64,000 bases of DNA from an uncultured Lentisphaeria bacterium (GCA_951812855.1 OX638337.1:960108-1024107), one strand, 5' to 3'; shown: positions 14,213 through 54,822, counted from the stretch's first letter. Notes: generated by a model from the letters alone, not told the origin. Translations and numbers: made by a program.

Positions 14213-14701
14213 ATGAGTACAACACATAATTTTCATTTTTCAGATTCACGTGATATTGGCACTGTTGACAATGATTCAATCGACCTGGCTGTTACCTCAC
14301 CACCCGACCCTGTGATGGAAATGTGGGATGACCTTTTTGTTACTCTTAATCCAGATATTAGCGATGTACTTTCAGATTTAAACGGCCGGTTAGCCTTTAG
14401 TAAAATGCATCATGAATTAGATAAAGTCTGGAGAGAATTGGATCGGGTCGTGAAACCAGGCGGATTTGTATGCATAAATATCGGTGACGCAACCTGAACA
14501 ATCGGTAATAATTTCAGCCTGTATTCCAACCATTCCAGCATCCTTATGTCAATGACATCACTCTCATTTTCGTTACTGCCGTTAATATTATGGAGAAAAT
14601 CGACAAATTCACCAACGAAATTTATGGGCTCGGGGCTGCTCCCGCCAGGGGCCTGTATAACACTTGAACATGGATACATATTAATCTTCAGAAAAAATTA
14701 A
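14213..14701 (+). pseudogene. DNA (N4/N6-adenine/cytosine) methyltransferase remnant with in-frame TGA and missing C-terminal SAM-binding region
   Basis: Frame continues through TGA at 14495-14497: …SIDLAVTSPPDP…VVKPGGFVCINIGDAT(TGA)TIGNNFSLYSNHSS…FMGSGLLPPGACITLEHGYILIFRKN(TAA); resembles N-terminal half of PF01555-type MTases (DPPY-like motif degraded to SPPD); no downstream FxGSG motif found. Confidence 0.5.
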
Positions 14702-15364
14702 AATATAATAGCCGGCACCATTGTTTTCCTGTTATGACACGACAGGGGCAGGAGATACTCATTAAGTACATTGAAACGATTCAGATCAGTGATAACGGCA
14801 GAATTAATGTGGACTACACACCATTTGAATTAAATAATAAGTATGCGGAAACAGAAGAATCAGTTAAACACAAATCACAAATTTTAGAGAACCGGCAATT
14901 ATCATTATTCCAGATCTATTCTCGGAGAATCTCAATAATTATTAATAAGCAGGTGTCGTCATATGTTCTGGGTCGTCGTTGCAGTATTTGGATGTATCTT
15001 TTTTATCGTAATTAATGCGTTCGTGTTTAATCCGCCGGAATCATTGCTCAAGTCTATACTTGAATGGAAAGAAAAATCAGTAGATGATGATCCTGGAACT
15101 GAAGACAGTAAAGAATAAAGTAAACAATACGTGATCTAAGAATCAAAACTTAAAACGGTAACACAGATTGATATGCCTCATGAACTCATTTTCAATCAAT
15201 CACATAAAAACCGAAATCAATGGTCGATATTTTATGAAACGATCTCTTCGGTGGACTTAAAAATTGATAATCGTAACAGGACAGTGTAAAATTAAATCTG
15301 ATAACTATTGAAAATCCGCTTTTTCAGAACAGGCTCCCGTTAAATCCTAATAATATAAAAAATT

Positions 15365-15868
15365 ATGTTTTTTAACTTATTATTACTATTTATTGTTGTA
15401 CCCATCATTGAATTATTGATTTTATTCAGAATTGGAGGACTGCTGGGTGCAATCAATACATTTACGGTGATAATTATTACCGGTGTTATTGGTGCATATC
15501 TGGCTAAACGACAGGGATTAATAATTCTTAAAAAAATTCAGACATCCATTGGAGAGGGCAAAATTCCTGCTGCCGAAGTTGTTGATGGTCTAATCATTCT
15601 CGTTGCCGGTGCAGTATTGTTAACGCCTGGATTTTTAACTGATATCACCGGCTTTTTACTCTTACTTCCTTTTGGGCGAAATCTGGTAACACTCTGGTTA
15701 ATAAAAAAGTTTACAACTATGATAAAATCGGGTAAAATTTCAGGGTCTGATTCCGGACACTTCGCGTTTAACATGACATCACATTCAGAGAAGGAAACGA
15801 TTCAGACTCACAAGAGCGATGTCATTGATGTAGAAAGCAGGCAGATTAATGACAACCTGATTGAATAA
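15365..15868 (+). CDS. fxsA: FxsA family cytoplasmic membrane protein
   Basis: 167-aa ORF; N-terminus …VPIIELLILFRIGGLLGAINTFTVIIITGVIGAYLAKRQG… matches FxsA family signature. Confidence 0.7.
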   Translation: MFFNLLLLFIVVPIIELLILFRIGGLLGAINTFTVIIITGVIGAYLAKRQGLIILKKIQTSIGEGKIPAAEVVDGLIILVAGAVLLTPGFLTDITGFLLLLPFGRNLVTLWLIKKFTTMIKSGKISGSDSGHFAFNMTSHSEKETIQTHKSDVIDVESRQINDNLIE

Positions 15869-15968
15869 TCCAAATCAGGTTTCAGGGATTCATTAACAAA
15901 GCTGCCGGATATGGTTTTCTTGCCCGGTTAGAATAATTCCAATAACGTCTTATACATGATCGTTGTGA

Positions 15969-16868
15969 TTGGTATTAAAGCACCTATTAATTTTAGTTTA
16001 TATGGCAAAGATACTTATAGCAGGATGTGGTAAAATCGGGATTAAATTGGGTTTAAAATTAGCCGAAGAAAACCATGACGTTTTTGGAGCAAGACGAAAT
16101 ATATCCGAAATTCCTGCTCCAATAATTCCTTTAACCGTTGATTTTTCAATACCGGATACACTGCCGGCCATTCCCGGGGCAATTGAATTTGTATATATTA
16201 TTTTAACCCCGGAAAAGTTTGATGATGACAGCTATAAACGAAGCTATGTTGAAGCGACGCAGAATATTTTGAAATATTTCGAAAAAAAGAAAGAGAAACC
16301 ACTTCACATCTTTTTTATATCAAGTACCAGTGTTTATGGACAGAAAAACGGCGAATGGGTTGATGAAAATTCAGAGACTGTTCCATTAGGTTTTTCAGGA
16401 ACGAGGATGCTCGAGGCAGAACAACTCATCACTCAGTCATCGATTGCGGGTGCCTCCTGTATTCGGTTTGGTGGTATTTATAGTAGTAAAAGAACAAGAC
16501 AAATCGATCGAATACAAAAAGGCATTTCAAAAAATTATCATGATTTAATAAATTATAAAAATTTAATTAATGAGGAAGATGCAGTAGGAATATTGCACCA
16601 TTTATTGGCAGAACCGAATAAGGAGACTCATTATCTGGCAGTTGATAATGAACCCGTTCAGGAATGCGATTTGTTAGAGTGGCTTCTGACAGAATTAAAG
16701 CTGTCTACAGCTCACGAATGCTCTGACCAATCTTTGTCCAGAAAGAGGAATTTAACTAATAAACGCTGTAATAATCAGAGAATTAGAAGATCAGGTTATA
16801 AATTTTCTTTCCCGACATACAAAGAAGGTTACAGGTCCATTATTGAAAAATTAGCTGCTTCAGCCTAG
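15969..16868 (+). CDS. NAD(P)-binding Rossmann-fold protein (SDR/epimerase-dehydratase family)
   Basis: 299-aa ORF; glycine-rich dinucleotide-binding motif MAKILIAGCGKIG near N-terminus (likely true start around 16002); …ISSTSVYG… typical of NAD-dependent epimerase family. Confidence 0.65.
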   Translation: MVLKHLLILVYMAKILIAGCGKIGIKLGLKLAEENHDVFGARRNISEIPAPIIPLTVDFSIPDTLPAIPGAIEFVYIILTPEKFDDDSYKRSYVEATQNILKYFEKKKEKPLHIFFISSTSVYGQKNGEWVDENSETVPLGFSGTRMLEAEQLITQSSIAGASCIRFGGIYSSKRTRQIDRIQKGISKNYHDLINYKNLINEEDAVGILHHLLAEPNKETHYLAVDNEPVQECDLLEWLLTELKLSTAHECSDQSLSRKRNLTNKRCNNQRIRRSGYKFSFPTYKEGYRSIIEKLAASA

Positions 16869-16986
16869 TTGACCGAAATGGTATTCTATTTGAAATGTTT
16901 GGTTTAATACAGCTGAGAGAGAATTAGATCTAATATTAAAAAAATAAAACGTATTAATTTTTGACTCTCAAACCAGAGAGTTGTTT

Positions 16987-17006
16987 AAAATAGCACAAAA
17001 CACTGT
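16987..17006. repeat. Copy 1 of 20-bp direct repeat AAAATAGCACAAAACACTGT in wza upstream spacer
   Basis: Seen directly; second copy at 17501-17520 differs at 2 adjacent positions (CA vs TG). Confidence 0.5.
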
Positions 17007-17105
17007 TTATATTTGGACTACTTTTGCTTTTGTTGATTTCTTAAAAAAATTCGCTTCCTGTTGATTTTATAATACGTTACAATTATTCAGGAATGTATTG
17101 GAATT

Positions 17106-17135
17106 TTAATTGCTGTAGTTTTAATTGCTGTAGTT
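17106..17135. repeat. Perfect tandem duplication of 15-mer TTAATTGCTGTAGTT
   Basis: Seen directly in sequence (two adjacent identical copies). Confidence 0.7.
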
Positions 17136-17500
17136 AGAAAAAAGCGTGCATGTCGATTGCAGCGTCTGACAGTGAGGGATATCTGGTGGTACGCATAGTC
17201 AGAACACAGGTCGGAGAGGTTTCTGAGTAACTTCCATCACCGCTGAAGGCATGGTCTGAAGAACAATAGACTGTCCTGGCGTCTCTGGGCAATGCTTCTA
17301 TTAATGAATGGCTCAATACTGTCAACATTAATTTTATGTGTATGAATGTACTTGCTCCCATTTACAAGACTAAAATTAAATCATTGGTTAGGTCATGGTA
17401 TACAAACAATAATCAGCAATTATTAAAATATAGAAAACGGGTAATAAATTCTATAACCCAAGACTGCTGACGGTGGTTAAAAATGCAGGATATTATTTTA

Positions 17501-17520
17501 AAAATAGTGCAAAACACTGT
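17501..17520. repeat. Copy 2 of 20-bp direct repeat AAAATAGTGCAAAACACTGT, ~90 bp upstream of wza start
   Basis: Seen directly; 514 bp downstream of copy 1, same orientation. Confidence 0.5.
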
Positions 17521-17607
17521 AAATTTAAATTAATCATTTGCTTTCCCTTAAATTTGATATACAGTTGTTCCTTTATTTTAATCTCCAACATGTCATCATA
17601 AATTTGT

Positions 17608-18516
17608 TTGAACAATGCAGTTCAAACGTCAACTGACCCAATATCAAAATGGGATTTTCGATTAAATATGTTACCTGTTAAATCTAAAAATTTACTTTTT
17701 ACTTTATTCACTCTATTCTCTCTATTCACTCTTCATCATTCACTTTTTGCTGAAGAGGATGATTATCAAATCGGCGGAAAAGATGTTCTCGAAGTTATAG
17801 TGTATGACGAACCGGATTTATCAAAAGAAGCGATTAGGGTATCTCTGGACGGTTATGTAAATTTCCCATTAATTGGAAAAGTTAATGTAAAAGGGTTGAC
17901 GTCCAGCCAAATTGAGGAAAAACTACAAAACCTGCTTGCTGACGGTTACATTCTTAGTCCACAAGTCTCTGTACTGGTAATGGAATACGGTAGCAGAAAG
18001 GTATTTGTTTTAGGTGCTGCAAAAAATACCGGAAGTTATGAACTTAGAGGAAAGACAACGTTATTAGAAATGATTTCAAAGGCAGGGGGCGTCGGTAAAA
18101 AAGCGGGAGATCACTTTCTTGTCCTTCGTGAAACTGAGCGTGGACCTGAGTCCATCCCGATTAACCGCAAAAAATTAATTGATGAAGGTGATTTATCACT
18201 AAATGTTATCTTAAAGAATAATGATACCGTTTATATACCCATTGCCGATGCAATTTACGTACTGGGCGAAGTTAAACGTCCTGGGACTTATGAACTTAGC
18301 GGCAATAATCGGACGGTGCTCTCTGCTATTACCCACGCTAGTGGCTTTACAAAAATAGCAGCTCCCGAAAAAACAAAAATAATTCGCGTCAACAATAAGG
18401 GTGTACAAGAAACGATCATTGTCGATCTTGAAGATGTTATGAAACGAGGTCAAAAATCCAAAGATATCAAACTCAAACCTGAAGATGTCATCATCGTTCC
18501 TCAAGGAATTTTTTAA
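17608..18516 (+). CDS. Polysaccharide export outer-membrane protein (Wza-like, short form)
   Basis: 302-aa ORF with hydrophobic N-terminus (likely start MLPVK at ~17668); polysaccharide-export/SLBB motifs (…YQIGGKDVLEVIVYDEPDLS…, …YVLGEVKRPGTYEL…). Confidence 0.8.
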   Translation: MNNAVQTSTDPISKWDFRLNMLPVKSKNLLFTLFTLFSLFTLHHSLFAEEDDYQIGGKDVLEVIVYDEPDLSKEAIRVSLDGYVNFPLIGKVNVKGLTSSQIEEKLQNLLADGYILSPQVSVLVMEYGSRKVFVLGAAKNTGSYELRGKTTLLEMISKAGGVGKKAGDHFLVLRETERGPESIPINRKKLIDEGDLSLNVILKNNDTVYIPIADAIYVLGEVKRPGTYELSGNNRTVLSAITHASGFTKIAAPEKTKIIRVNNKGVQETIIVDLEDVMKRGQKSKDIKLKPEDVIIVPQGIF

Positions 18517-18859
18517 TTTAAGCTATAAACTGTTTTAAAGTAAAATTTACGATTAAAACCCTGATAAGACTTATAACATTTATAAAATATCAGGTTTGAC
18601 TCAGTATCTCAATTATTCAATCATATATATATAGTGTATCAAATGTAGTAGGAATCATGTAAGCCAAAAGAGAATTTAATAAACTATTAAGCCATTTGTA
18701 CTGTTTACAAATGATTGCCTGATGCTCAAGTACACTTTTGTTAGTGCCAATCGATTTTAAAGTCCAAAGTCATACGTCCTACTTGCCGTATCGAAAACAT
18801 TTTTTTTTATGATTTTTCAATAAAATAAATTTAATATATAAAAAAATAAAATTCTTAAA

Positions 18860-21142: not shown

Positions 21143-21500
21143 CTTTGACCTGCCGGGACTGCAGCTCAAGTGCTGTCCATTAAATAACTGATCTGTCATA
21201 AAATCCATCACCGAGACTTTGGCTTTGTAACTTTGTTACCCAATCCCTCAGTACAGTATAGTTGATAAATGTCCTTGTGATTGACCGCCCATGTCCGACA
21301 AATGCTTACTTGAAATATTACTCGAAGAAAATAAACCAAATCACACCTCTATTTCAGCCGCTATCCGCGATGGGATCCAGCCGAGATTAAAGCCGCACGC
21401 CCATCTCTCGATACATTCACCCCGCCCTCCTGGCAAACTGAAAAGGCAATCCTTCTGAACATTTATTCTCAACTGACGGGTGTTGTGCCGATGACAGGCA

Positions 21501-21674
21501 AGTTATAAAAACGATCTGGATTATCAACCAATATGCAGCGCTGCCCAAAGAAGGCATCCTTGGCGGTCGCACGCATCACTTGGCACACGAGTTCACTAAA
21601 ACAGGGCACCAAGTCTATGTCGTCGGTGCAAGGTGGCATCATCATCTGACAGACCGCAGCCATGCCGAGACTTA
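21501..21674 (+). pseudogene. 5' fragment of a GT4-type glycosyltransferase gene (no start codon, stop after ~57 codons) within GC-rich island
   Basis: Frame translates …VIKTIWIINQYAALPKEGILGGRTHHLAHEFTKTGHQVYVVGARWHHHLTDRSHAET(TAA); resembles conserved N-termini of GT4 glycosyltransferases (MKIxxINQYxxxPxxG…GHxVxVV…SHL); ATA where ATG expected. Confidence 0.4.
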
Positions 21675-21919
21675 ATTCTTTGTACTTGGCATTAGCGGCC
21701 GTTTGTGCTTCGTCGGCATCGGTATATTAATGTCGGAGGCTAAATACCCCCTCGGCAGTGCCCGCCCCGTCGGCCCAGTCGATTTTTGCCGCAACCGCTC
21801 GGGTCCCCCTCCAGGTCCGACACCAGGAGAAGTGAAATTACAGAAAGAAAGTTACACTCCCTGGAAAGAAGTCATTTATTTGTAAAGAATATTAAATGAA
21901 ACTGTGTACGTTTTAATTA

Positions 21920-24121: not shown

Positions 24122-24487
24122 AATACTGGTATATATAAACGAATCCCTGCCCTGGCCAACGCTGCCGGGTTCACCTTCAGCACAATGCCACGGCTTAAAT
24201 ACCTAAAAAAGAAATGCACAGTGAGGTCGCCCAGGCATTACCATAGACGATGACGTACCACTAATATGGCAGAAAACATCAATAAACAATTAAAGGAACG
24301 AACACGCATCGCATCACTTTTCCCAAACGAAGCATCACTGCTCAGATTGGCAAGTGCCATTTTGATCAAAATCAGCGACCGGCGGACGCTGGAAAACGTA
24401 CCTGAAAATGGATCATCAATGACCTGCGATTATCAAACTGCAGAAAAAAATTTGCATTACCGCCATTTTTTAATAATTGTGTACTAA
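24122..24487 (+). mobile_element. IS256 (Mutator)-family transposase 3' remnant with in-frame TGA
   Basis: Frame translates …SPRHYHRR(TGA)RTTNMAENINKQLKERTRIASLFPNEASLLRLASAILIKISD…, matching the conserved C-terminal block of IS256-family transposases (…TTNxIExxNxxLRxxxKxxxxFPNExSxxRLxxAxL…); N-terminal/catalytic part not found; 5' boundary approximate. Confidence 0.5.
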
Positions 24488-24603: not shown

Positions 24604-26079
<1,476 letters not shown>

Positions 26080-26143: not shown

Positions 26144-27922
26144 ATGCATCCATTCAGAACACATACATGCGGGGAACTATGCAAAGACCATGTCGGCGAG
26201 TCCGTTCGTCTTTCCGGCTGGGTTCATCGCGTCAGAGATCATGGAGGCGTCATCTTTGTTGATCTTCGTGACCACTATGGAATTACCCAGATTGTCATTG
26301 ATCCGGAAAAGGAAATATATCAGGATTTACATCATTGGCGTGTCGAGTCAGTGGTAACGTTTACGGGTAAAATCGTCCTTCGTGATGAGAAAACGGTCAA
26401 TTCTAAAATACCAACCGGCCACATCGAGCTTGCCGCAGATGAAATGGATATGCAAAGTAAAGCCGATTTATTACCGTTTCCCGTGGCAGATGAAGCACCG
26501 TGTCCGGAGTCAACCCGATTATCCTACCGTTTTCTGGATTTACGCAGAGAAGATCTTCATCAAAATATTATTCTCCGCTCACAAATTATTGACAGTATTC
26601 GTAAACGTATGGTTAAGTCAGGCTACAATGAATTGCAAACACCGATTCTGACATCGAGTTCACCAGAAGGTGCACGTGATTTTCTTGTTCCCAGTCGGTT
26701 ACATCCCGGAAAATTTTATGCATTGCCCCAGGCACCGCAGCAGTTTAAACAGTTGCTTATGGTTTCTGGTTTCGATAAATATTTTCAAATTGCACCCTGC
26801 TTCCGAGATGAAGATTCAAGAGCCGATCGGTCTCCGGGTGAATTTTATCAACTTGATTTGGAAAGGTCATTTGCAACTCAGGATGACATTTTTGCAGATG
26901 TTGAGTCTGTGTTATCCGGCCTTTTTAACGAATTTTCAGATGACAGTATTGATGATGCACCATTTATACGTATTCCCTACAAACAGGCAATTTTAGAGTT
27001 TGGCAACGATAAGCCGGACTTAACGAACCCTTTACGACTGATTGACGTAACAGATGAATTTAGAGATTCTGAATTTAATGCATTTGCCAACGTCGTTAAA
27101 AAAGGCGGGGCGGTGCGTGCAATTAGTGTTAAAGGTATTGTTGATCAATCACGAAAATTCTTCGATGATATGATCGAATTTGCTCAGTCCGTTGGAGCAA
27201 AAGGACTTGCCTACATAGGTTGGAAAGATGGAAATGAGCGTAGTCCAATTGCCAAATTTTTAACTGAAGAAGCATTGGAAACATTAAAAGTTAAAGGAAA
27301 AATTGATGATACTGATGTCATGTTTTTTATATGTGATAAGATAGAGAAGGTATCCGATATCGGTGCTGCTGTTATAAAGGAACTGGCTGACCGTTTGGAT
27401 TTACGTGAAAAGAATGCGTATCGATTTTGCTGGATTGTTGATTATCCAATGTTTGAGCTCAATGAACAAACTCGGAAAATAGAATTCTCGCATAATCCAT
27501 TTTCAATGCCGCAAGGAGAAATGGATTCATTAAAAAACAACGATCCTCTTGATGTGTCAGCCTATCAATATGACCTCGTTTGCAATGGAGTTGAGCTATC
27601 CAGTGGTGCGATTCGAAATCACAAACCGGATATCATGTATAAAGCATTCGGTATTGCCGGATATACACGAGATGAAGTCAATGACAAATTCTCAGGTCTG
27701 ATTCGGGCATTTAAATTGGGTGCACCCCCACATGGCGGTATTGCACCGGGTATTGACCGCATTATTATGCTTCTTACAAAATCACCCAATATTCGTGAAG
27801 TTATTGCATTTCCAATGAATCAACAGGCTCAAGATCTCATGATGAATGCACCTTCATCAGTAAAACCGCGGCAACTTAAAGAACTTCACCTTGAAGTAAA
27901 ACTTCCGAAAAAGAAACAATAA
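26144..27922 (+). CDS. aspS: Aspartate--tRNA ligase
   Basis: 592-aa ORF; N-terminal OB anticodon-binding domain (…VRLSGWVHRVRDHGGVIFVDLRD…), class II motifs (…FYALPQAPQQFKQLLMVSGFDKYFQIAPCFRDED…, …GGIAPGIDRIIMLL…). Confidence 0.9.
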   Translation: MHPFRTHTCGELCKDHVGESVRLSGWVHRVRDHGGVIFVDLRDHYGITQIVIDPEKEIYQDLHHWRVESVVTFTGKIVLRDEKTVNSKIPTGHIELAADEMDMQSKADLLPFPVADEAPCPESTRLSYRFLDLRREDLHQNIILRSQIIDSIRKRMVKSGYNELQTPILTSSSPEGARDFLVPSRLHPGKFYALPQAPQQFKQLLMVSGFDKYFQIAPCFRDEDSRADRSPGEFYQLDLERSFATQDDIFADVESVLSGLFNEFSDDSIDDAPFIRIPYKQAILEFGNDKPDLTNPLRLIDVTDEFRDSEFNAFANVVKKGGAVRAISVKGIVDQSRKFFDDMIEFAQSVGAKGLAYIGWKDGNERSPIAKFLTEEALETLKVKGKIDDTDVMFFICDKIEKVSDIGAAVIKELADRLDLREKNAYRFCWIVDYPMFELNEQTRKIEFSHNPFSMPQGEMDSLKNNDPLDVSAYQYDLVCNGVELSSGAIRNHKPDIMYKAFGIAGYTRDEVNDKFSGLIRAFKLGAPPHGGIAPGIDRIIMLLTKSPNIREVIAFPMNQQAQDLMMNAPSSVKPRQLKELHLEVKLPKKKQ

Positions 27923-28014: not shown

Positions 28015-28218
28015 TTATTTATACTCGAGAATGGTTGCACCATCGGTAAATCCCCCGCCAAAACTGCAGAGACCGATATCATTGTAACCGTCCATATCTG
28101 CCATAATATCATTAAGGGCAAGTGGTATGGTATTGGATGAGGTATTTCCAGGATGCTCAATATTACAAAAAACTTTCTCATTATCAATATTTAATCCTGT
28201 TTGGGTTCCAATTGTCAT
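28015..28218 (-). pseudogene. C-terminal fragment of a FabH-like 3-oxoacyl-ACP synthase III / thiolase-fold condensing enzyme
   Basis: 67-codon frame …GLNIDNEKVFCNIEHPGNTSSNTIPLALNDIMADMDGYNDIGLCSFGGGFTDGATILEYK matches FabH C-terminus pattern (GNTSxxSIPLAL … FGGGxTWGA); in-frame TGA two codons upstream of first Met; no upstream body of gene found. Confidence 0.35.
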
Positions 28219-28697
28219 GGATTGTCACACAATTGTACACGGATTTATTAAATTAGTTTAAATATAAGGGAGTCAATATGAATACACCTCTCATCTTTGA
28301 ATGATCGCAAGAAGACTCGAATATGCTTTTTATGTTTATCAGCCAAGTTTTATTTTCCATGGTATTTGTTAGTGGGGTAAGCTTTGGTTTTCGTATCGGT
28401 TTGTTATTAAGCACATTGTATTGTCAGATTCATGGCAGCTGTTTGAATTACCGGTGTTCACAGGGCAGGTTACAGCCTTGACGTATCTGTTCACCTTAAT
28501 ATACAGGATGCACTTTCAGGAAATAGCCGGGGCAGTTTCTTTTAACTAAATGGCAGCCTTGTATTTTACCTCACTTTAATTATTTATGGTAAACTGACGG
28601 GCTGTAACACCGGGCTTAATGGCCTTGTATTCCTCTGAAAAATCAGGCGGGCGGCATATTTTTTGACATCATTTTAAAATTTATAAAGATTAACGCC

Positions 28698-30908
28698 ATG
28701 GATATTACACATTTACGTTTGGGAACTTTAGTCATCTCTGTATTTGTCGGGGTATGGCTTTTTATTGTTTCACACTATATCCGAATTCCTGCAATTGTTC
28801 TTTTACTGATTGGAGGCGTAATACTGGGGCCGGAGGGGTTGGCCATAATCGACCCTGAATCTCTTGGACAGAGTCTTCGGTTAATCATATCTCTGTGTGT
28901 TGCCATTATACTTTTTGAAGGAGGTTTATCCTTAAAGCCCGAGGGATTTAAGAAGGCACCAAGAGTTATTTGGAAGCTTTTAACAATCGGTGTCGGAATC
29001 ACCTGGCTTGGAACTGCTGCGTTAATTCATTTTCTTCTGAATTTTCCTATACCAGTCTCATTATTATGCGGCAGTCTGGTTATTGTTACGGGTCCAACAG
29101 TTATCGCGCCATTGCTTAATCGAATCAGTGTTAAGGATAAATTATATCACATCTTGCATTGGGAAGGTGTTTTAATTGATCCAATTGGTGTTTTTATTGC
29201 AATTTTGTGTTTCGAATGGTTAAGCATTGAGGGAAGTTTTATAACGCATATTGGACATTTAAGCTATCGCTTGTTAGTTGGCATTGTGATAGGTATCATT
29301 GGCGGTCTAATTTTAACGTTTTTACTGGTTAAAAAAATAATACCGGAACAACAAGTGAATATTTTGGTATTTGCCACAGCGTTATTTTTATTTGGTATCT
29401 CTGAATCAGTTGTTCACGAGGCCGGTATTCTTACCGTGGTTATAGCAGGACTTGTTATGGGCTGGACGTCTCCTCCGCAGCTTAAACATATCAAAAAATT
29501 TAAATCTGAGTTAACCGAAATTTCGATTGCACTGGTTTTCATACTTCTTGCCGCCAATCTTGAACTGCATCAATTTTCAAAATTCGGCTGGAGAGTTGTA
29601 TTGGTTATTTGTGGTGTGCTGTTTATTATTCGTCCACTTAGCATCATGCTGTGTACAAAAGGCTCTCAACTTAGGATGAATGAAAAATTGTTTCTGTCCT
29701 GGATTGCCCCAAGGGGGGTTGTCGCAGGGTCGATGGCGTCCCTCTTCGGGTTAAGGTTATCAATGCAAGGTCATCCAAACGCAATATTTTTGGAAACATT
29801 TACATTCAGTATCATCGCAACTACAATTGTTTTTCAAGGATTAACTGCTGGTATTGTGGCACACTGGTTAAAGGTTGAAGAACCCGAAAAGAAGGGATGG
29901 CTTATCATCGGTGCTCACCTTTTCTCAAGAAAAATTGCGTCGTTCATCATGGAAACGACCAATGGCGTATGTATTTTGATTGATACCAATGAAGATGCGG
30001 TCAGAGAGGCACAAAATGAGGGATTTATCGTGATCCAGGGCAATGCGTTGTCGACGGATATTCTTCCTCTTGATCAGATGTCTTCAATCGGCAATCTCCT
30101 CGCACTGACTGATAACCGGGATTTAAACCAGTTGATTTGCGAGAAATGGTCAGAGATGATTGACCGTAATCATTTATACAGGTGGTCGTCACGATCCATT
30201 CAGGATGAAAACGAAATTGGTGGAATGGGAAAGCCGTTATGGCCGATGATCCCAAAACCCTCTCAACTGTCATATGATTTAAAAAACATGAATGTCAATT
30301 GTCGGCAATTAAATGAAAACGAATCGTTTGTAAAGTCATCCGGAAATGAGAGGATGATAACCTTTACTGACAGCACACTTCATTTTTCAGACAGTGTTCC
30401 TGAAGGAGTTGAAGCACCTGATGTTTTTGTGTTGGAACGACTGTCGCTGAATTTACTTGGATTAATTAAACGTAATCAAATCTTTTTTCTTGACTATGAC
30501 GATTATGAAGAATTGTTAAATGTAATACTTAATGAAATTGAACAGATTTATCCGGATATTGTTAATGATGCACTCAAATCAAGTTTGGTGCATCGCGAAG
30601 TCAAATTTCCCTCAATACTGGCAAATAGAATTGCAGTACCGCACACCCGATCTTCCTCATTAAATGAGTCAATTTGTGTAGTTGTACAGTTAAAACAGGA
30701 GATAAATTTACCGCCGCCTAACGCCGGGACTGTCAGACTGTTATTTCTATTATTGACACCCGAAGATAAACCGGAACAACATTTAAGACTTCTTGCAGAA
30801 ATTGCCAAAATTGCATCGTCCCCGGACTTGGTTGATTCACTTATAAATGTGAATTCGATTGATGATTTAATACAAAATTTTAAGGGTATTAATGCAAAAA
30901 TCGAGTGA
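28698..30908 (+). CDS. NhaP/CPA1-type cation:proton antiporter with central RCK-like and C-terminal PTS EIIA (type 2, PtsN-like) domains
   Basis: 736-aa ORF; ~12 TM segments in first 400 aa, Rossmann-like middle region (…WLIIGAHLFSRKIASFIMETTNGVCILIDTNEDAV…), C-terminal EIIA-2 domain with AVPH active-site motif (…ILANRIAVPHTRSSSL…LLFLLLTPED…). Confidence 0.8.
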   Translation: MDITHLRLGTLVISVFVGVWLFIVSHYIRIPAIVLLLIGGVILGPEGLAIIDPESLGQSLRLIISLCVAIILFEGGLSLKPEGFKKAPRVIWKLLTIGVGITWLGTAALIHFLLNFPIPVSLLCGSLVIVTGPTVIAPLLNRISVKDKLYHILHWEGVLIDPIGVFIAILCFEWLSIEGSFITHIGHLSYRLLVGIVIGIIGGLILTFLLVKKIIPEQQVNILVFATALFLFGISESVVHEAGILTVVIAGLVMGWTSPPQLKHIKKFKSELTEISIALVFILLAANLELHQFSKFGWRVVLVICGVLFIIRPLSIMLCTKGSQLRMNEKLFLSWIAPRGVVAGSMASLFGLRLSMQGHPNAIFLETFTFSIIATTIVFQGLTAGIVAHWLKVEEPEKKGWLIIGAHLFSRKIASFIMETTNGVCILIDTNEDAVREAQNEGFIVIQGNALSTDILPLDQMSSIGNLLALTDNRDLNQLICEKWSEMIDRNHLYRWSSRSIQDENEIGGMGKPLWPMIPKPSQLSYDLKNMNVNCRQLNENESFVKSSGNERMITFTDSTLHFSDSVPEGVEAPDVFVLERLSLNLLGLIKRNQIFFLDYDDYEELLNVILNEIEQIYPDIVNDALKSSLVHREVKFPSILANRIAVPHTRSSSLNESICVVVQLKQEINLPPPNAGTVRLLFLLLTPEDKPEQHLRLLAEIAKIASSPDLVDSLINVNSIDDLIQNFKGINAKIE

Positions 30909-31151
30909 TGAATTAAAAAAAGCACATAAGGAAGAGAAATGAAGTTTGCTGCTAATGCTGCAGCGAAGCGGGCAGGTGTCAGGAGTTGTTATTGCTGTTT
31001 TTACCATACATATGAAGATTCGATTGATAAGATGGATTTTAAAAAATCAGCACGGGTGGTCGCCGGTTTAGAACATGTTATTAAGAATTTAGTCGGCATA
31101 AGGAAATGAGAAATAACGGATAATAATAAGAAAGTAAATATAGAAAATTGT

Positions 31152-32715
31152 TTAGCTTCGATTAAGCACAATTGCAGTTCGGGCTGGAAGATATACGGTG
31201 AAGAAATGCTTTTGATTTTTACCGTTATTTTTACATTCTCGGGTATGGTAACGCTGATTTTCATCCAGTCTGCCCTGGCCGTTAAAGGTTTTTGCATCAC
31301 TGTCTAATAGAAGTTTGTAAGTCCCGGGATCAGTATAAACCGGTAAATGATTAACGGGGATTAAAGTTAAAGATAAAAATAAGTTGAGCTCGTTGGAAAC
31401 AAATTAATTTATCCAGGATGTGGTTGCAGATTAAATCTCCCCTGTCATCAGGATCTAGAAGATTAAACGTGTCGGCTATTTTTATCATTTCCTTGTCAAA
31501 TTCTGCTAAATGATAATAAATCAGATTGGGATCATCACGCAGGCTCCACTGGCGTCTTGCATATTGGAACGACCAATCATTTCCTTCTCTCGGGAAATCA
31601 ATCCACTCAGGATGACCAAACTCATTTCCCATAAAATTCAAATACCCTTCACCACCGATGGCCAACGTAATCAGACGGATCATTTTATGTAAGGCGACAC
31701 CTCTTTCAACAGAGATATTGTTATGGTCAAGATGCATATTGTGGTACATATCTTCGGCAATGGTCAGGGCATCGGGTTTGAGTTTGTGAATCAGTTTATT
31801 TGCCAATGTCAGGCAGGTCAGGGCATCGTTATCCACCTGATCATTGAAATAATCATCATAAGTTGTAAATGTTTTATCAAGACCATGGTCGGTGTACAGC
31901 ATGCTGGTGACGCCATCAAAACGAAATCCATCTAAATGAAATTCATCCCGCCAATATCGACAGTTTGATAGCAGAAAATGTATCACTTCACCTTTTTGAC
32001 AGTCAAAACATCGTGAGTCCCAGGCGTCATAATAGCCGCGGCTGCCGGTATGAAAATAAAGATGATCAGTACCGTCAAAAAAGCTTAATTATTCTACTTC
32101 ATTGCGAACGACATGGGAATGAACCAGATCCATGATGACAGCAACGCCTTGACCGTGTGCGGCATCGATAAGTGCTTTTAATTCATCCGGCGTCCCGAAT
32201 CTGGAAGATGCTGTAGAAAAATTAGACACATGATAACCAAATGATCCGTAGTAAGGATGTTCCTGTATTGCCATCAATTGGATGGTATTGTAGCCGCAAT
32301 CAACGATTCTCGGGAGAATATTATTTTTGAATTCGGTGTATGATCCGACACGGGTATTCTCCAATGCCATACCAATATGTGTCTCGTAAATGATTGGTGG
32401 TTTCGTTGATCGTTTAAATCAGGTATCTGCCGGATCAATTTTAATCCTTATAGTTTCGCCTTCCGACCATATTGGGTTTTCTGAATTTTCTGGCAGGGAA
32501 AACATTTTCACCTGGAAATAGCCAACCTCCAACATTGGCAATGAAATTTTGTAATAATTTTTACGAACTGGTTTCATCGGGAAATCAAACCAGTCGTCAT
32601 TCTTTTTGGCTTCTCCGAATTCCACCTGATTAATAATATCCTGCCGGTTGTTCCTGCCGTGGCTCAGTGTACTTCTGATCCGGGCGGTCTCTTGACAGGG
32701 TTGATTTAATGTCAA
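31152..32715 (-). pseudogene. glgB: Eukaryote-type (GH13) 1,4-alpha-glucan branching enzyme gene, decayed: four in-frame stops, one frameshift, internal deletion, truncated N-terminus
   Basis: Three track ORFs (32419..32715, 32089..32370, 31351..31986) lie in the same frame, separated by in-frame TGA (32419-21) and TAA (32089-91); conserved GBE motifs present (…IYETHIGMA…, …[23 protein letters not shown]…, …LDGFRFDGVTSMLY…, …HKMIRLIT…GGEGYLNFMGNEFGHPEW…) but ~95 aa including the catalytic ESHDQ region absent between TIAED and MYHNM; C-terminal domain (…VYTDPGTYKLLLDSDAKTFNGQGRLDE…FFTVYLPARTAIVL) continues in another frame after TAA 31351-53/TGA 31330-32. Confidence 0.65.
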
Positions 32716-34329: not shown

Positions 34330-35409
34330 TTAAAAATCGAGTAGTTCAACATCGAAGATTAACGTTGCTTTTGGGGGAATACGTGGCGGGGCTCCCCGTT
34401 CACCATAGGCAAGGCGGTGGGGAATTATTAATATGCGTTGTTCTCCCTTTTTCATATCTAAAAATGCTTCGTCCCATCCTTTGATGACACGACCAGCTCC
34501 AACATTGAATTCAAATGGTAAATTTCGATCTCGTGAACTGTCAAATGTTTTTCCATTGGCAAGAGTGCCGGTGTAGTGGGCTTTTACTTTTGTTCCTCTT
34601 TTGGGTTTATTACCTGAGCCTTCTTTTAATATAACATATCGTAATCCGGATGCAGTTTTGATTTGGTTCGGCCATTTTTTATTGATAATTGCATTGTCCT
34701 TTTCCTGTACCGCTTTTTCTTTCTCCGCCTGTTGATTTTTAGCCTTCTTCAGTCGGTTCTTAAAAGTATCATTGTCTGATTTAAACTTGTTTGCATCGTC
34801 ACCTACTCTGACAATGGTAATCGAATTTATCTTATCTTTATTCTGAATTTTATTAACGATATCCTGACCGTTTATTACTTCCCCAAAGACTGAATGTTTG
34901 TTGTCTAACCAGGGAGTTGCCTTGTGAGTGATAAAAAATTGACTGCCATTTGTATCCTGTCCGGAATTTGCCATAGACAGTATTCCCGGGCCGCTATGTC
35001 TAAGAGTTGGGTCAAACTCGTCAGAAAATTTATAACCGGGACCTCCAGTACCTCTGCTGAGTGGACAACCGCCCTGAATCATAAAATCGGGAATGACCCG
35101 ATGAAAGACTAATCCGTCATAAAACTTGGTTCCCTTTGGTTTATTCGATTCAATCGTACCCTCAGCTAATCCGATAAAATTCATGACTGTCAGTGGAACT
35201 TTGTCATAGTGTAACTTCAGCAGGATTGTTCCTTTTGAAGTATTGATCTTTGCATAGATTCCGTCACTGAGTTTTTTTGAAGACGATTCTCCAGCATAAG
35301 AAAGGAAGTTTATGGTTATTATTAGAATTAAGAGCTGAATAATATTTCTTAAATTATAACGGCATAGGATCATCTTTATTCCATCCTGTTTTGTCTGTTG
35401 CTTTTTCAA
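34330..35409 (-). CDS. Secreted dual-family peptidyl-prolyl cis-trans isomerase (cyclophilin domain fused to FKBP domain)
   Basis: 359-aa ORF; N-terminal signal/TM segment; cyclophilin motifs (…[15 protein letters not shown]…, …[18 protein letters not shown]…), C-terminal FKBP domain (…[14 protein letters not shown]…[29 protein letters not shown]…[10 protein letters not shown]). Confidence 0.8.
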
Positions 35410-35767
35410 TGCTCAAAGTTGGTGCTGATACGGTAAAAGTTTTATACGTAAAAAAACAAGGTAACTGTTATGTCTTCCTGTGGCAATGCAATGTCTAAAA
35501 TTTTGCTTTGAATTTGAATTGCTCCTTGATTTGGTGTAAGATGTTAAGTAATAAGATACGTGTGATTTGTGGATTTTTAGATTGGCGTTTTTCAATAACA
35601 TTTTGTTCCATAAATCCGAACATTTATTATTTTCTGATGTCCTGACAAATATCCGTGTGATATATCTAAACTGTTGTCTAAGCAGATGCTGTGTCGCCTA
35701 AAATTGAAATCGTTATTTGTTGGTATATGAATTTGAGCCATAACTATGAAAAAGGAGCAATGATAAT

Positions 35768-41025: not shown

Positions 41026-41343
41026 TCAGTTATGCCTGAACGTGAACATCGTATTATTTAGCACCTCTTTAATCGCAGATGCCGGTTTAGATAAATCAAT
41101 TGGTTTCATGACGCAGTCATATACACCCGCTTCCTTCGCTTTTTCAGGGCTGGTACTGCCACTGAAACCCGAAGCAAGTATAACGGGGATATTCGGATTA
41201 ATTTCCAGAATATGTTTGACCAGATCAGTTCCAGTCATTCCGGGCATTGTCTGGTCGGTAAAGATTAGATCAAATCGTTCTGAATTCGATTTAATTTTCC
41301 GAGAAGCAGAGATTATATTTTTATGTATTTGAGGGAATTTCCA
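41026..41343 (-). pseudogene. Response-regulator receiver domain remnant (C-terminal two-thirds only)
   Basis: Minus-strand frame reads (stop)…KIKSNSERFDLIFTDQTMPGMTGTDLVKHILEINPNIPVILASGF…AKEAGVYDCVMKPIDL…; contains phospho-acceptor Asp region and K of receiver fold but lacks the N-terminal acidic pocket and any start codon upstream. Confidence 0.5.
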
Positions 41344-41543
41344 TTATTTTTCGTCTATCAGTTCATATCTCAATCTAAATTGACAAAAAAAATTGGCTGT
41401 TGCTAATTTGAATTTAAGTATTAAAATTGGGTTATAATCAGGAGACAAATCAAAATGAGAGTTCCTGATGTCATAGTGAAACGATATAATCGGCTAAATT
41501 TTTTGCATTTTTCTGAAAAACACACAATCGATTAGGGAATATA

Positions 41544-42547: not shown

Positions 42548-42961
42548 ATGAGTATTAACGTTCAAATCAGGAAAGAGGAAGAACTCAGTCGATTCCTGGA
42601 GATTCATAATTTTCAGGTGGATGATTTAGACAATGGTGTCTATCGGGTTGTCAGAGAAACTGAGCTGCCGGTTTTTATAAAGGTATCGGAAGTGGCTGTT
42701 TATTTTGAGCTTGATCTGGGTAATATCACAGAACTGGCTGGTGAAGAGTTATACTTCAAATTATTAGATCTCAATACTGAAATATTGCCTGTCAGTTTTG
42801 GTATTAATAATTCAAATCCAGATGATCCCAGGCTTGTTCTCGTTGAAACTCGGGAACCATGTCACTTGAGTGACAATCAGTTACTCAGTGTATTTGATGC
42901 AATTGAATTAGCTGCAGATAAGGCTGAAAAGCTTCTCACTTCATGTATTAGTGAAGGTTAA
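42548..42961 (+). CDS. Hypothetical protein, YbjN-like (tentative)
   Basis: 137-aa ORF; size and alternating hydrophobic pattern compatible with YbjN/T3SS-chaperone-like fold; 33 bp upstream of pspA. Confidence 0.4.
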   Translation: MSINVQIRKEEELSRFLEIHNFQVDDLDNGVYRVVRETELPVFIKVSEVAVYFELDLGNITELAGEELYFKLLDLNTEILPVSFGINNSNPDDPRLVLVETREPCHLSDNQLLSVFDAIELAADKAEKLLTSCISEG

Positions 42962-44322: not shown

Positions 44323-44370
44323 ACTCTTCCCTGTGTTGTAGTGTGAATTTAATAATTTTCTGATATTACA

Positions 44371-47078: not shown

Positions 47079-47204
47079 TAAGTTATTATATCGAGTTTAC
47101 TATTCTGTAAACTGGTATTCTGATTGATTGATTAAACAAGTTTTTTGCAAATGATAAATAATGCGGACATCAAGTGTCATGCTTCCAGTAAACCTGTAAG
47201 CACA

Positions 47205-47801: not shown

Positions 47802-47823
47802 CTTTTTTCAATCTTAACCCATT

Positions 47824-48153: not shown

Positions 48154-48166
48154 AATGTAATCCGTT

Positions 48167-49460: not shown

Positions 49461-49465
49461 TTCAA

Positions 49466-51216: not shown

Positions 51217-51231
51217 TTGGCCGAATAAATT

Positions 51232-51984
51232 TTATATTTTAGAAAGGCGTAATTTTTGTTCTACTCTTTTGATATCCTCAGGGACATCCACACCTATGGT
51301 ATCGTTATCTGTTATAATGACTGAAATTTTAACTCCATGTTCGAGTGCACGAAGTTGTTCCAGTTTTTCAGCACGTTCTAAATTACTCCGGGGCCATTTT
51401 ACAAATTGTTTTAAGAAACGTGTTTTATACGCATAAATCCCCCAATGTTTTAACGGTTGTGCTGCATTATCAGTATTATCCCTGAAATAAGGTATTGCTG
51501 CTCTGCTGAAATATAGTGCAAACTTATCTTTGTCTATGACAACTTTAACGGTATTCGGATCATGGCAGTCATTATTGTCTGGACAGAATGGAACCGCAAT
51601 TGTTCCCATTTCAACGTGTTCCTGCTGTTTCATTACAGTAATTAATTCATTAATCACTGATATTGACACTAATGGTTCATCTGCCTGTACATTTACAATA
51701 ATATCAGTATCTATATCTTCGATAACCTCAGCGATCCTGTCACTTCCTGTAGTGTGGTCAGGTGATGTCATTACAGCGGTTCCGCCGAATGATTTGACAC
51801 ATTGTAAAATTCGATCGTCATCGGTTGCAACAATTGTCTGGAGAACATCTGCAGAGGATGTTTGTTCATAAACCCGCTGAATCATGGGTTTGCCCGCGAT
51901 TTCAGCTAATGGCTTTCCTGGAAATCGTTCACTGGCGTAGCGGGCAGGTATAATTGCAATGACACGTTTATTTTTACGATCCAT
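51232..51984 (-). CDS. kdsB: 3-deoxy-manno-octulosonate cytidylyltransferase (CMP-Kdo synthetase)
   Basis: 250-aa ORF; N-terminus …VIAIIPARYASERFPGKPLAEIAGKPMIQRVYE… diagnostic for KdsB. Confidence 0.9.
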   Translation of the reverse strand: MDRKNKRVIAIIPARYASERFPGKPLAEIAGKPMIQRVYEQTSSADVLQTIVATDDDRILQCVKSFGGTAVMTSPDHTTGSDRIAEVIEDIDTDIIVNVQADEPLVSISVINELITVMKQQEHVEMGTIAVPFCPDNNDCHDPNTVKVVIDKDKFALYFSRAAIPYFRDNTDNAAQPLKHWGIYAYKTRFLKQFVKWPRSNLERAEKLEQLRALEHGVKISVIITDNDTIGVDVPEDIKRVEQKLRLSKI

Positions 51985-52010
51985 CTATACAACGGGTTAG
52001 GGTTATATTA

Positions 52011-53096
52011 TTAAAATTCAATAGAGTATGGAGCCGGATCTATAATTGGTAAACGATTTAGAATTATATCGGCTAATAATCTTGCAGATGCGGGAGCTAA
52101 CAGAATTCCATTGCGGTAGTGCCCTGTATTGACGTATAGATTCTGAATATTAGGTATTTTTCCTATTAATGGCAATCCAGATTCTGAAAACGGTCGTAAT
52201 CCGGACCAATGTCGAATCGTTTTACAGTTAGACAACTCAGGGACTAATTCTATTGCGAACTTTTTTAGTGCTTTCAAACCATCCTCAGTAATATTTTTAT
52301 TAAATCCTGCATTTTCTACAGTGCTGCCGGATAAAACCAAGCCATCCGTTCTGGGAATCAAATATAGCTCATTTTTTAATATAATCTGCGAAAATAGATT
52401 CTTATTACATTTAAATGAAATCATTTGGCCGCGAACCGGAGAAATTTTTAGATTGCAACGATTTGATTTCACCAAGTTTCCACTCCAGGCACCACTCGCA
52501 ATAATGATGTTGTCAGAAAGATAATTGCTGTTGTTTAGTTTAAATCCTAAACACCTTTGATTTTCAATTAGCAGGTTTTCAATACAGGATTGTTCTAAAA
52601 TAGAAACTCCCTGTTGTAATAAATAGACTTTTAGTGCTTCCAATAATAATGGATTTCGAATCTGGTATATGTCAGGTAAAAATAATGCAGAATGATATTT
52701 CTTATTCAAATTAGGAGCCAATCTGGCTAATTCATTTTTACTCAACCTATCTGTATTGATATCTTGTTTTTCTGCCCATGAAAAACATTGATCCATATCA
52801 TGCGAGCCGATGATCATCATTCCACTCTTTGTGAGTTCTGGATTGATTTGTGTTGAATTTATCAACTCTTCAACTAAGCTTTGGTAATTGTTTTGTGACC
52901 ACTGTGCCAGATCAGATATAGCCCGGGGTACTTTCCAGGGAGAGAGGGCTGAAAGGATACCGCCTCCTGCCCATGATGATTCATTTCCAGTAGTGCCTGA
53001 ATCTACTAACAGAACGGACATTTCAGATTTAATAAGTTCTTTTGCGGTCAATAGCCCGATAATGCCGCCACCGATTATGATGCTGTCATATTTCAT
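52011..53096 (-). CDS. FAD-dependent oxidoreductase (glycine/D-amino-acid oxidase family)
   Basis: 361-aa ORF; N-terminal FAD-binding fingerprint …YDSIIIGGGIIGLLTAKEL…; substrate not assignable from sequence alone. Confidence 0.7.
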   Translation of the reverse strand: MKYDSIIIGGGIIGLLTAKELIKSEMSVLLVDSGTTGNESSWAGGGILSALSPWKVPRAISDLAQWSQNNYQSLVEELINSTQINPELTKSGMMIIGSHDMDQCFSWAEKQDINTDRLSKNELARLAPNLNKKYHSALFLPDIYQIRNPLLLEALKVYLLQQGVSILEQSCIENLLIENQRCLGFKLNNSNYLSDNIIIASGAWSGNLVKSNRCNLKISPVRGQMISFKCNKNLFSQIILKNELYLIPRTDGLVLSGSTVENAGFNKNITEDGLKALKKFAIELVPELSNCKTIRHWSGLRPFSESGLPLIGKIPNIQNLYVNTGHYRNGILLAPASARLLADIILNRLPIIDPAPYSIEF

Positions 53097-53121
53097 AGAT
53101 TCTGAATTCAGATGATTTAAT

Positions 53122-53862
53122 TTGATAAATAAACAATTTTATGAGGGTCATTATATTACTATGATTTATTACGGTATAAATCCGGTCTTTGAATCTTTGA
53201 ATTCAAACAATTTGCCGGACACAATTTACACTGCTGCATCAAAGGACAGTTCAACGATTAATTCCATAATTCGTATAGCAGAAAAGAAAAATATACCTGT
53301 CATTCGAAAACTGGATCTGAAAAAACTCTGTCAGTCGGATAATCATCAGGGAGTGTGTGCACATATTGCAAGCTTAAATGAGCATAATTTATTTCAAACT
53401 GAAATTTCAACAAATAGATTTATTATGTTTGATGGTATACAGGATCCGCATAATTTTGGTGCTGCATTGAGAGTGTGTGAGGTATTTGGTTTCAAGCATG
53501 TAATTTTTCATAAAGGCAATTCCAGTGGACTTACTTCGACCGCAATCAAGGTATCTTCTGGTGCCGCATTTCACCTTAATCTGTATCAGACAAACCTGAA
53601 TTCAGCGATAAAGAGACTAAAACATCTTAATTTCCAAATTTGTATTTTAGACAACAACAGTGAGCAAAGCATATATGAAATAACGTTTCCGAAAAAGATT
53701 TGTTTTGTAATTGGCTCAGAAAATAAAGGAGTTCGTTTTTCGATTAAACGAAAATCAGATATTACAATGAAAATTCCGCTTTTGGGTAAGGTTGATTCAC
53801 TGAATGTTTCGTGTGCACTGTCAGCTGTATTGTCAGTATATACAGGCTTTGCGTCAGAGTGA
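53122..53862 (+). CDS. SpoU/TrmH-family RNA 2'-O-methyltransferase (RlmB-like, with N-terminal substrate-binding domain)
   Basis: 246-aa ORF; SPOUT motifs (…FDGIQDPHNFGAALRVCEVFG…, …IGSENKGV…, …LNVSCALSAVLS…). Confidence 0.75.
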   Translation: MINKQFYEGHYITMIYYGINPVFESLNSNNLPDTIYTAASKDSSTINSIIRIAEKKNIPVIRKLDLKKLCQSDNHQGVCAHIASLNEHNLFQTEISTNRFIMFDGIQDPHNFGAALRVCEVFGFKHVIFHKGNSSGLTSTAIKVSSGAAFHLNLYQTNLNSAIKRLKHLNFQICILDNNSEQSIYEITFPKKICFVIGSENKGVRFSIKRKSDITMKIPLLGKVDSLNVSCALSAVLSVYTGFASE

Positions 53863-53966
53863 AGATGAGATATCTTCTCAGAAATATGAATTGCCGGTCT
53901 TTTTATGAAAACATCAGACCTAATCGAATACAACAAATTGAACGAGAATCACAAAGTTTGGAAAAA

Positions 53967-54380
53967 TCACTTCAAACTTAAAGAATAATCACCCTTCCTT
54001 TTTTCCCATACAAATTTAGGATCGATAACAGGATCATAATTTCCCGGTGCAGAAGAAATAAAAAACGCAGTATCATAAACGCCTGCACCTGTGCGTGCTG
54101 CGACCATAACAAGCCCATTAAAAAGTCCAACAGTGGGTGTTGCCAGGAGTCCATCGTTTTTAAACGTTAACCAAAGCTGCCTGGGTAATTCTATCCAACC
54201 CGTTGCAATGTTAACGATACCTCGAAAGAATTTTTTATTCATTGGATCAAAAACTGATTCAAATGGAATCCCGTCAAAATTTTTAGATGGAGAGTCTGTC
54301 TCCTGTGCTCTTAGATGTGAAACATTTACCAGCGACAAAATAATAACGAAAATATACAAAGTACTTAGATAATTTTTCAT
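53967..54380 (-). CDS. Small secreted protein with signal peptide (possibly exosortase-system-associated family; tentative)
   Basis: 137-aa ORF; N-terminal signal peptide (…IFVIILSLVNVSHLRAQ); motif …RGIVNIATGWIELPRQ…AARTGAGVYD… recalled as typical of a small exosortase-associated protein family; not verified. Confidence 0.45.
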   Translation of the reverse strand: MKNYLSTLYIFVIILSLVNVSHLRAQETDSPSKNFDGIPFESVFDPMNKKFFRGIVNIATGWIELPRQLWLTFKNDGLLATPTVGLFNGLVMVAARTGAGVYDTAFFISSAPGNYDPVIDPKFVWEKRKGDYSLSLK

Positions 54381-54681
54381 GCGTTTATTCCTGTCGGTAA
54401 TTACGTTTTGGATTTAGATATAGAACTGTTTAGTGGCTGTCATAAATATTATCATCAATTAAATGATTGCAAATCACTTTGACATAGATGCCCTGCTTCT
54501 TCAATGAGAGACAATCCTGTTTTATATAAATTCATCCATAAAATGATCAATTTTAGTGTTTTTTACACTTCACTAAATTCAATTAAGCATACGGTGTCCC
54601 AGGTGAATTATTCGCAGGTAAAATTTATACGTGAACAGGGGTTCTGGAAGTTTGAGCAGGAAGTTGCCGGTACAGGAATTA

Positions 54682-54822
54682 ATATTTTTTCTCTTCCTTG
54701 AATTCAACTTCACTCTGTTGTATGCCAAAGTGTTTGCAAGTGTATTGAATAAATTCCTGTTCATCTGAATTTAACTCACCGTCAATCATAGATACTTCAA
54801 TAATGTTTACCAATTTGTTTTG
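54682..54822 (-). pseudogene. TerB-like domain fragment (paralog-like remnant of the N-terminus of the 44371..45726 ATPase)
   Basis: Stop-to-stop minus-strand frame QNKLVNIIEVSMIDGELNSDEQEFIQYTCKHFGIQQSEVEFKEEKKY; the …MIDGELNSDEQEFI… block parallels …VLIDGDLNVDERAFI… in the TerB-AAA protein; only ~45 codons. Confidence 0.3.

Follow-up and report, generated by a model that had tools for sequence, protein, structure and literature searches.

In Rickettsia, Andersson and colleagues reportedly found spacers that carry degraded remnants of genes, and about 24% of the R. prowazekii genome is said to be non-coding. Mycobacterium leprae, Sodalis glossinidius and the Sitophilus symbiont SOPE represent an early stage of genome reduction, with mass pseudogenisation, ca. 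50% coding DNA, a pseudogene every few kilobases and often many copies of insertion sequences (IS). Free-living bacteria are also said to carry decaying genes, which a 2004 pseudogene survey by Liu and colleagues reportedly assigned to failed horizontal transfers and accessory functions. Here, we describe eight gene remnants, among them a pseudogene of the 1,4-alpha-glucan branching enzyme (glgB), in a stretch of 64,000 nucleotides from an uncultured Lentisphaeria bacterium (GCA_951812855.1, OX638337.1:960108-1024107); the whole stretch is referred to as the window. The long spacers of the window are very probably the wreckage of genes lost by this lineage, left by a decay that appears recent and ongoing and that possibly belongs to a genome-wide reduction under relaxed selection.

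The window was compared with contigs from the metagenome assembly ERZ18545485, which contains a closed circular contig of 1,941,460 bp that is 99.7% identical to the window (the NCBI copy of the genome has 1,947,381 bp), as well as several short contigs that are 100% identical to it. Cultured Lentisphaerota have genomes of ca. 5-6 Mb. Coding sequences occupy 79-81% of the window, and seven of its nine spacers longer than 500 bp contain a remnant. For the remaining pair (7022-7543 and 16869-17607), none of the six frames yielded a Pfam match, six-frame Pfam scans of two further spacers (35410-35767 and 59902-60297) were also empty, and the six-frame spacer scans recovered no additional pieces of the known remnants. 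Known RNA genes do not account for the long spacers either, since the entire window was scanned for Rfam families and tRNAs and returned no matches. Two long non-coding stretches without protein-family or RNA-family matches, 7022-7543 and 14702-15364 (the latter scanned in plus-strand frames), may be either regulatory DNA or remnants decayed past recognition.

A preliminary description of the window listed seven remnants, and all seven stretches are visible by six-frame translation at or near the coordinates given there. Six of them (methyltransferase, glycosyltransferase, IS256 transposase, FabH-like tail, glgB and response regulator) were identified by homology, while the seventh, a TerB-like fragment, is only weakly backed. 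With curated Pfam gathering scores as the cut-off, five of the remnants pass. The limits of the remnants, corrected for the glycosyltransferase, the IS256 transposase and the part of the receiver domain with clear homology, are collected in Table 1 together with an eighth remnant that was absent from the initial list.

The glgB gene is nearly full length yet dead. The Pfam Alpha-amylase profile matches it with 48.1 bits (cut-off 22), and with the conceptual glgB protein as the query, an intact ortholog of 665 aa was identified (P0121, on contig L088 of GCA_021772675.1), to which the pseudogene aligns in three blocks with identities of 82%, 77% and 68% (residues 156-379, 460-601 and 599-661, respectively). 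The part that can be aligned with the ortholog spans positions 31164-32418; the C-terminal reading frame continues to ca. 31001, beyond the boundary of 31152 reported before, and the N-terminal ca. 155 codons are unrecognisable. An in-frame TAA (32089-32091) lies inside the ungapped block of 82% identity, where the ortholog has a glycine. Conserved protein sequence therefore does continue through this stop, as was proposed for the methyltransferase, transposase and glgB remnants and as is also the case for the TGA codons of the former two. The proposal does not extend to the second glgB stop, a TGA at 32419-32421, which is located at the 5′ edge of recognisable homology and outside of conserved sequence. 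In addition, an 80-codon in-frame deletion near position 31760 (residues 380-459) removed the conserved GH13 region IV (ESHDQ), and a frameshift is present near 31340-31352. The junction of the deletion falls within a short repeat encoding I(A/G)EDM.

Comparison with the intact ortholog also bears on the age of the glgB lesions. The ratio of non-synonymous to synonymous substitution rates (dN/dS) between glgB and its ortholog is 0.07-0.09, as compared to 0.04-0.08 for pairs of intact genes (Wza, Wzc and antiporter); since dS is saturated, the comparison is qualitative. As the glgB value is in the same range as that of intact genes, it indicates that the gene was under selection for nearly the whole period of divergence and was inactivated recently, so that the earlier view of the remnants as recently decayed holds for glgB. 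Between the window and the main circular contig, glgB carries eight single-nucleotide polymorphisms (SNPs; five non-synonymous and three synonymous), none of them at a stop codon; their density, calculated from these 8 SNPs only, is 0.005 per site, i.e., near the synonymous level in intact genes (pS of 0.0059), while non-synonymous polymorphism (pN) is 0.0013.

The FabH-like remnant (Pfam ACP_syn_III_C, 45.1 bits, cut-off 26.6) and the eighth remnant were placed with the help of relatives. A search for homologs of the antiporter encoded next to them revealed a protein of 86% identity (P0002) on short contigs from the sponge Mycale hentscheli, whose metagenome was sequenced in two independent studies (PMC7157528 and PMC7196800). 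In this relative (contig WLWI01006652.1, L084 below), the antiporter gene is preceded by an intact gene for a 1119-aa fusion protein and by an intact gene for a 129-aa membrane protein. The fusion gene (386-3745 of that contig, minus strand) combines E1_dh, Transket_pyr, Transketolase_C, Biotin_lipoyl, ACP_syn_III and ACP_syn_III_C domains in one protein. The FabH-like piece is 69% identical to residues 1056-1119 of this fusion and has the same position and orientation. Between this tail and the antiporter gene, i.e., where the relative has its membrane-protein gene, tblastn with the 129-aa protein detected the eighth remnant (residues 40-96, 46% identity, E = 7e-9, two internal gaps).

The glycosyltransferase fragment had no match in Pfam, NCBIfam and PDB sequence searches. 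An exhaustive phmmer search of 1.84 billion representatives aligned it to residues 1-56 of a 407-aa protein (P0361) with 80% identity (E = 1.8e-22), and this protein and four other phmmer matches contain Glyco_trans_4 and Glycos_transf_1 domains. Intact counterparts are thus available in relatives for glgB (P0121), the KAS III tail and the 129-aa gene (both in L084) and the glycosyltransferase (P0361). The spacer that houses the glycosyltransferase stub (21143-21919) has a GC content of 47%, with a maximum of 55%, in a genome of 38% GC. This foreign-looking base composition suggests that the lost glycosyltransferase gene, or a gene cluster to which it belonged, was acquired horizontally.

The methyltransferase remnant matches positions 1-107 of the 221 positions of the Pfam N6_N4_Mtase profile (36.9 bits, cut-off 26.7) in an alignment that spans the stop codon, and it was recovered in the six-frame scan. 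The IS256 remnant corresponds to the last ca. 50 residues of a transposase (Transposase_mut, 35.9-38.5 bits, cut-off 21, profile positions 324-373 of 379); the rest of the protein, its first ca. 320 residues, was not found in the plus-strand frames of the spacer. The receiver-domain remnant gave 55.7 bits with Response_reg (cut-off 30.2, profile positions 39-107 of 111); no receiver-domain match was detected upstream of its well-preserved part, where the reading frame contains an in-frame stop. The TerB fragment scored 19.2 bits (E = 1.6e-3), under the Pfam cut-off of 24.4, and it was not recovered in a six-frame scan of its spacer. Weak pointers to the same 35-45 residues came from the TerB-family structure 2ou3 in PDB (E = 0.25) and, by tblastn, from a TerB protein of contig L088 (E = 0.029). 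For annotation, small open reading frames called in these spacers (for example, those with products of 94, 67, 93, 121 and 211 aa) should be treated as fragments rather than genes.

Table 1. Gene remnants and the strain-variable non-coding stretch of the window (coordinates are counted from the first nucleotide of the window)
Feature	Coordinates	Strand	State
N4/N6 DNA methyltransferase, N-terminal half	14213..14701	+	in-frame TGA 14495-14497; ends with TAA 14699-14701; C-terminal half missing
514-bp non-coding stretch	16984..17520		imperfect 23-bp direct repeats 16984-17006 and 17498-17520; in the window, absent from the main circular contig
GT4-family glycosyltransferase, first 56 codons	21505..21672	+	remaining ca. 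350 codons absent; start ATG changed to Ile codon
IS256-family (Mutator-type) transposase, C-terminal remnant	24143..24469	+	in-frame TGA 24251-24253
KAS III (FabH)-like C-terminal tail of a fusion gene	28015..28209	-	last 64 codons and stop; other ca. 1055 codons deleted
129-aa membrane-protein gene, decayed middle (eighth remnant)	28305..28424	+	
GH13 1,4-alpha-glucan branching enzyme (glgB) pseudogene	31001..32715	-	nonsense codon(s), deletion, frameshift, N-terminal loss
Response-regulator receiver-domain remnant	41026..41379	-	C-terminal two thirds well preserved (41026-41298)
Possible TerB-domain gene, C-terminal fragment	54679..54819	-	weak

We next consider how the genes were dismantled. 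The window and the main circular contig were compared over 48 kb, in which they differ at ca. 0.25% of sites (122 SNPs) and by four indels, three of 1 bp and one of 514 bp. The latter corresponds to a stretch flanked by imperfect 23-bp direct repeats, with no Pfam or Rfam match inside. A blastn alignment of contig L091 with the window breaks at these repeats (repeat family D1, spacing 514), and four more contigs, which are 100% identical to the window over their lengths, keep the 514-bp stretch. We infer that its presence is the ancestral state, i.e., that the difference arose by deletion rather than by insertion. Two deletion junctions were examined, this one and that of glgB, and both are at short direct repeats. 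The density of SNPs in non-coding and coding DNA is 3.3 vs. 2.3 per kb (p = 0.08 over 48 kb); a strong non-coding excess seen over 22 kb (p = 0.001) weakened over the longer comparison and is not relied on.

These data favour a familiar two-step process. A point nonsense mutation or a frameshift would first disable a gene, and deletions between short direct repeats would then strip most of it, leaving short 5′ or 3′ stubs. Most of the remnants are terminal stubs, as is expected after large deletions. The loss appears both recent and continuing, as indicated by intact orthologs in relatives, by the signature of selection in glgB and by the 514-bp deletion that differs between contigs of the same sample.

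The preliminary description went further and took the remnants as the signature of early reductive evolution following recent host restriction. This is plausible and unproven; for the 80 kb in view, a process that is milder or patchy would account for the data just as well. Reduction is favoured by the closed circle of 1.94 Mb, the coding fraction, the share of long spacers that contain remnants, the dead glgB gene, the association of the nearest relative with a sponge and the GC content (38%, as compared to 39-43% in close relatives, with 47-63% for the sampled loci of Lentisphaerales and Victivallaceae). The dead glgB suggests a loss of glycogen storage. Reduction at the scale of the whole genome under relaxed selection may be tied to life with a sponge or another host. 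The gene of the D123/Cdc123 family, which was said to fit a host-restricted lineage, is real: an ATP-grasp gene of this family is located at 55166-55912 on the plus strand (Pfam, 79 bits). Bacterial Cdc123/D123 members have been linked to type VI secretion or described as possible effectors (PMC4431377). The presence of the gene is compatible with host association and is not evidence for it. It adjoins lpxK, and there are no type VI secretion genes nearby within the window.

Several observations weigh against an extensive reduction driven by a host. The density of remnants in view, with ca. 80 kb of the 1.94 Mb contig read, is about one per 8-10 kb (eight in the window), and they are spread unevenly: seven of the eight are located at 14-41 kb, while the window segments at 1-13 kb and 42-54 kb are compact. 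The flanks are compact as well, with 93% coding DNA over 10 kb upstream and 84% over 6 kb downstream, and in these ca. 16 kb the called genes include neither obvious fragments nor transposases. The degraded IS256 tail is the one IS-related sequence of the window, which lacks intact IS elements and shows no sign of IS expansion. Retained genes give no indication of relaxed selection: the ratio of non-synonymous to synonymous polymorphism (pN/pS) of intact genes is 0.22 for the two contigs, and the comparison with relatives gave the dN/dS of 0.04-0.08 mentioned above. The pN/pS value implies that purifying selection is still effective. The methyltransferase, the IS256 element and the glycosyltransferase belong to the accessory or mobile genes, whose decay is also common among free-living bacteria, and the glycosyltransferase spacer appears foreign in base composition. 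The TerB fragment, with its scores under the cut-off, is weak and not securely identified. The sponge habitat is recorded for the metagenomes of the relative only and not for the sample from which the window comes. In the relatives examined, no locus is syntenic past one or two genes; the closest species-representative genomes (metagenome-assembled genomes (MAGs) of Lentisphaerales and Victivallaceae) share no neighbouring genes with the window, and the contig with intact glgB shows no other synteny with the window. Finally, the organism is a divergent member of the Planctomycetes-Verrucomicrobia-Chlamydiae (PVC) group, probably from Lentisphaerota, a placement that comes from the best matches of one protein, AspRS (64-69% identity to Lentisphaerales and Victivallaceae MAGs among species-representative genomes).

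One can therefore ask if the decay is local, i.e., if the window crosses a region of plasticity in which the genes being lost are for the most part accessory ones or horizontal acquisitions that failed (a methyltransferase of restriction-modification, an IS element, a glycosyltransferase of a polysaccharide locus), with no genome-wide reduction or host restriction. Turnover of such genes occurs in all bacteria. We regard this as rather unlikely, though the clustering of remnants at 14-41 kb, next to flanks and other window segments that are 84-93% coding, speaks for it, as do the pN/pS value, the lack of intact IS elements and the GC content of the glycosyltransferase spacer (47-55%) and of the IS256 remnant (45%) in a genome of 38% GC. 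This explanation does not account for glgB, the KAS III fusion, the 129-aa membrane protein and the receiver domain, which are chromosomal genes with a native-like GC content of 34-41%, nor for the intact orthologs found in relatives. The remnants are, moreover, interleaved with housekeeping genes (IlvC, AspRS, phosphoglucomutase, bshABC) instead of forming one island, and the genome is merely 1.94 Mb in size.

A second alternative, that the stops and frameshifts are errors of long-read metagenome assembly, is highly improbable. The source is indeed a metagenome assembly, and one contig (L003) has a 1-bp deletion in a run of five A residues (window position 27908) near the 3′ end of aspS, which changes the product from 592 to 607 aa and may be either a homopolymer error or a real variant. 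Assembly error had been named as the check to be made on the in-frame stops; the second long-read contig, 99.7% identical to the window, shares the stops of the methyltransferase, IS256, FabH-like and glgB remnants. The two contigs differ from each other at 0.25% of sites, and no SNP between them alters an in-frame stop. The methyltransferase remnant has no differences at all between the two contigs, and its region is covered by four more contigs identical to the window. Most of the lesions are truncations and deletions of hundreds to thousands of bases, and all four indels between the contigs avoid intact coding sequence, being confined to the 21% of the sequence made up of non-coding DNA and pseudogenes.

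The least probable alternative, that the in-frame TGA and TAA codons are read as amino acids (by reassignment, as selenocysteine or through programmed read-through) in functional genes, has in its favour the conserved sequence across three stops and is excluded by the fact that all three stop codons end intact genes of the window (25 TAA, 14 TGA and 9 TAG) and by the further damage in the same genes (the methyltransferase lacks its C-terminal half, the transposase its first ca. 320 residues and glgB, which also has a frameshift, the catalytic region IV), so that the stops are real inactivating mutations, as had been proposed.

Decay of lost genes, recent and ongoing, thus remains the preferred explanation of the long spacers. 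A bolder and tentative version of it is that the window comes from an undescribed, invertebrate-associated lineage of Lentisphaerota which is perhaps some way into genome reduction, with deletions between short repeats still differing among co-occurring strains. If this were true, the dynamics of DNA loss could be tracked at the population level in a PVC lineage outside of Chlamydiae and Verrucomicrobia.

Apart from the remnants, the gene content of the window is mostly core. It includes secDF, menF/menD, AddA-like and RecD-like helicase genes, wza/wzc, phosphoglucomutase, ilvC, aspS, the NhaP-type antiporter gene, ubiA, bshC/B/A, pspA, speD, lptABC, kdsABC, lpxK, ndk, aroB, dprA and the start of topA. 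A few of the intact genes are fusions. The antiporter (28698-30908, plus strand) is fused with TrkA_N and PTS EIIA domains, a double prolyl isomerase fusion of cyclophilin and FKBP is encoded at 34330-35409 (minus strand), and a 572-aa protein (57697-59415, minus strand) joins a ribose-5-phosphate isomerase B domain (LacAB_rpiB) to serine hydroxymethyltransferase, which is an unusual combination. Directly upstream of pspA, a small protein (42548-42961, plus strand) is a borderline match (26.9 bits, cut-off 27) for the CesT/Tir type III secretion chaperone family.

Two loci outside of the window should also be mentioned. A relative's contig (L090, JAJFLO010000098.1, positions 1343-8015) shares the Wza-Wzc pair with the window and has no glycosyltransferase gene downstream; on it, two wzc copies flank wza, each 72% identical to the single wzc of the window, and the lineage of the window may have lost one copy. 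Some 1-10 kb upstream of the window, contig L097 (294-8950) encodes a 2337-aa multidomain synthase (KS, AT, ACP, KR and DH) and a PfaD-like enoyl reductase. By its domain content, the locus resembles a Pfa-type cluster for a polyunsaturated fatty-acid or polyketide synthase, and a large biosynthetic locus has thus been retained in a small genome.

The process seen here is an ordinary one in a little-studied lineage; that genes decay through nonsense mutations and subsequent deletions is textbook knowledge, and nothing is overturned. The value of the window is descriptive, since it shows genes being dismantled with intact orthologs as a reference, in a closed genome of 1.94 Mb from a poorly known PVC lineage, and documents a deletion that still differs between strains of one sample. 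A passage of PMC6686919, citing Henrissat 2002, links the loss of glycogen metabolism to parasitic lifestyle and reduced genomes. The window shares with this marker of host dependence a dead branching enzyme gene in a small genome, though glgB alone of the pathway was examined here and the phosphoglucomutase gene is intact. With Rickettsia, the window has in common intact housekeeping genes, long spacers with barely recognisable fragments, a coding fraction of ca. 76-81% and deletion-biased erosion after inactivation. It differs in that the genome is larger (1.94 Mb) and belongs to the PVC group and in that the remnants are patchy within 80 kb; intracellular life is a feature of Rickettsia, while here the comparison is one of genes only.

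The methyltransferase, IS256 and GC-rich glycosyltransferase remnants fit the class of decay said to occur in free-living bacteria, which leaves out glgB, the KAS III fusion, the membrane protein and the receiver, all of native composition and three of them with intact orthologs in relatives. As in M. leprae, Sodalis and SOPE, recognisable pseudogenes with nonsense codons and frameshifts stand beside intact core genes. In contrast to these genomes, the window is ca. 80% coding, has one remnant per ca. 8 kb, mostly in the form of short stubs, and carries no intact IS. These differences fit a milder or a later stage of the process than the one that M. leprae, Sodalis and SOPE represent.

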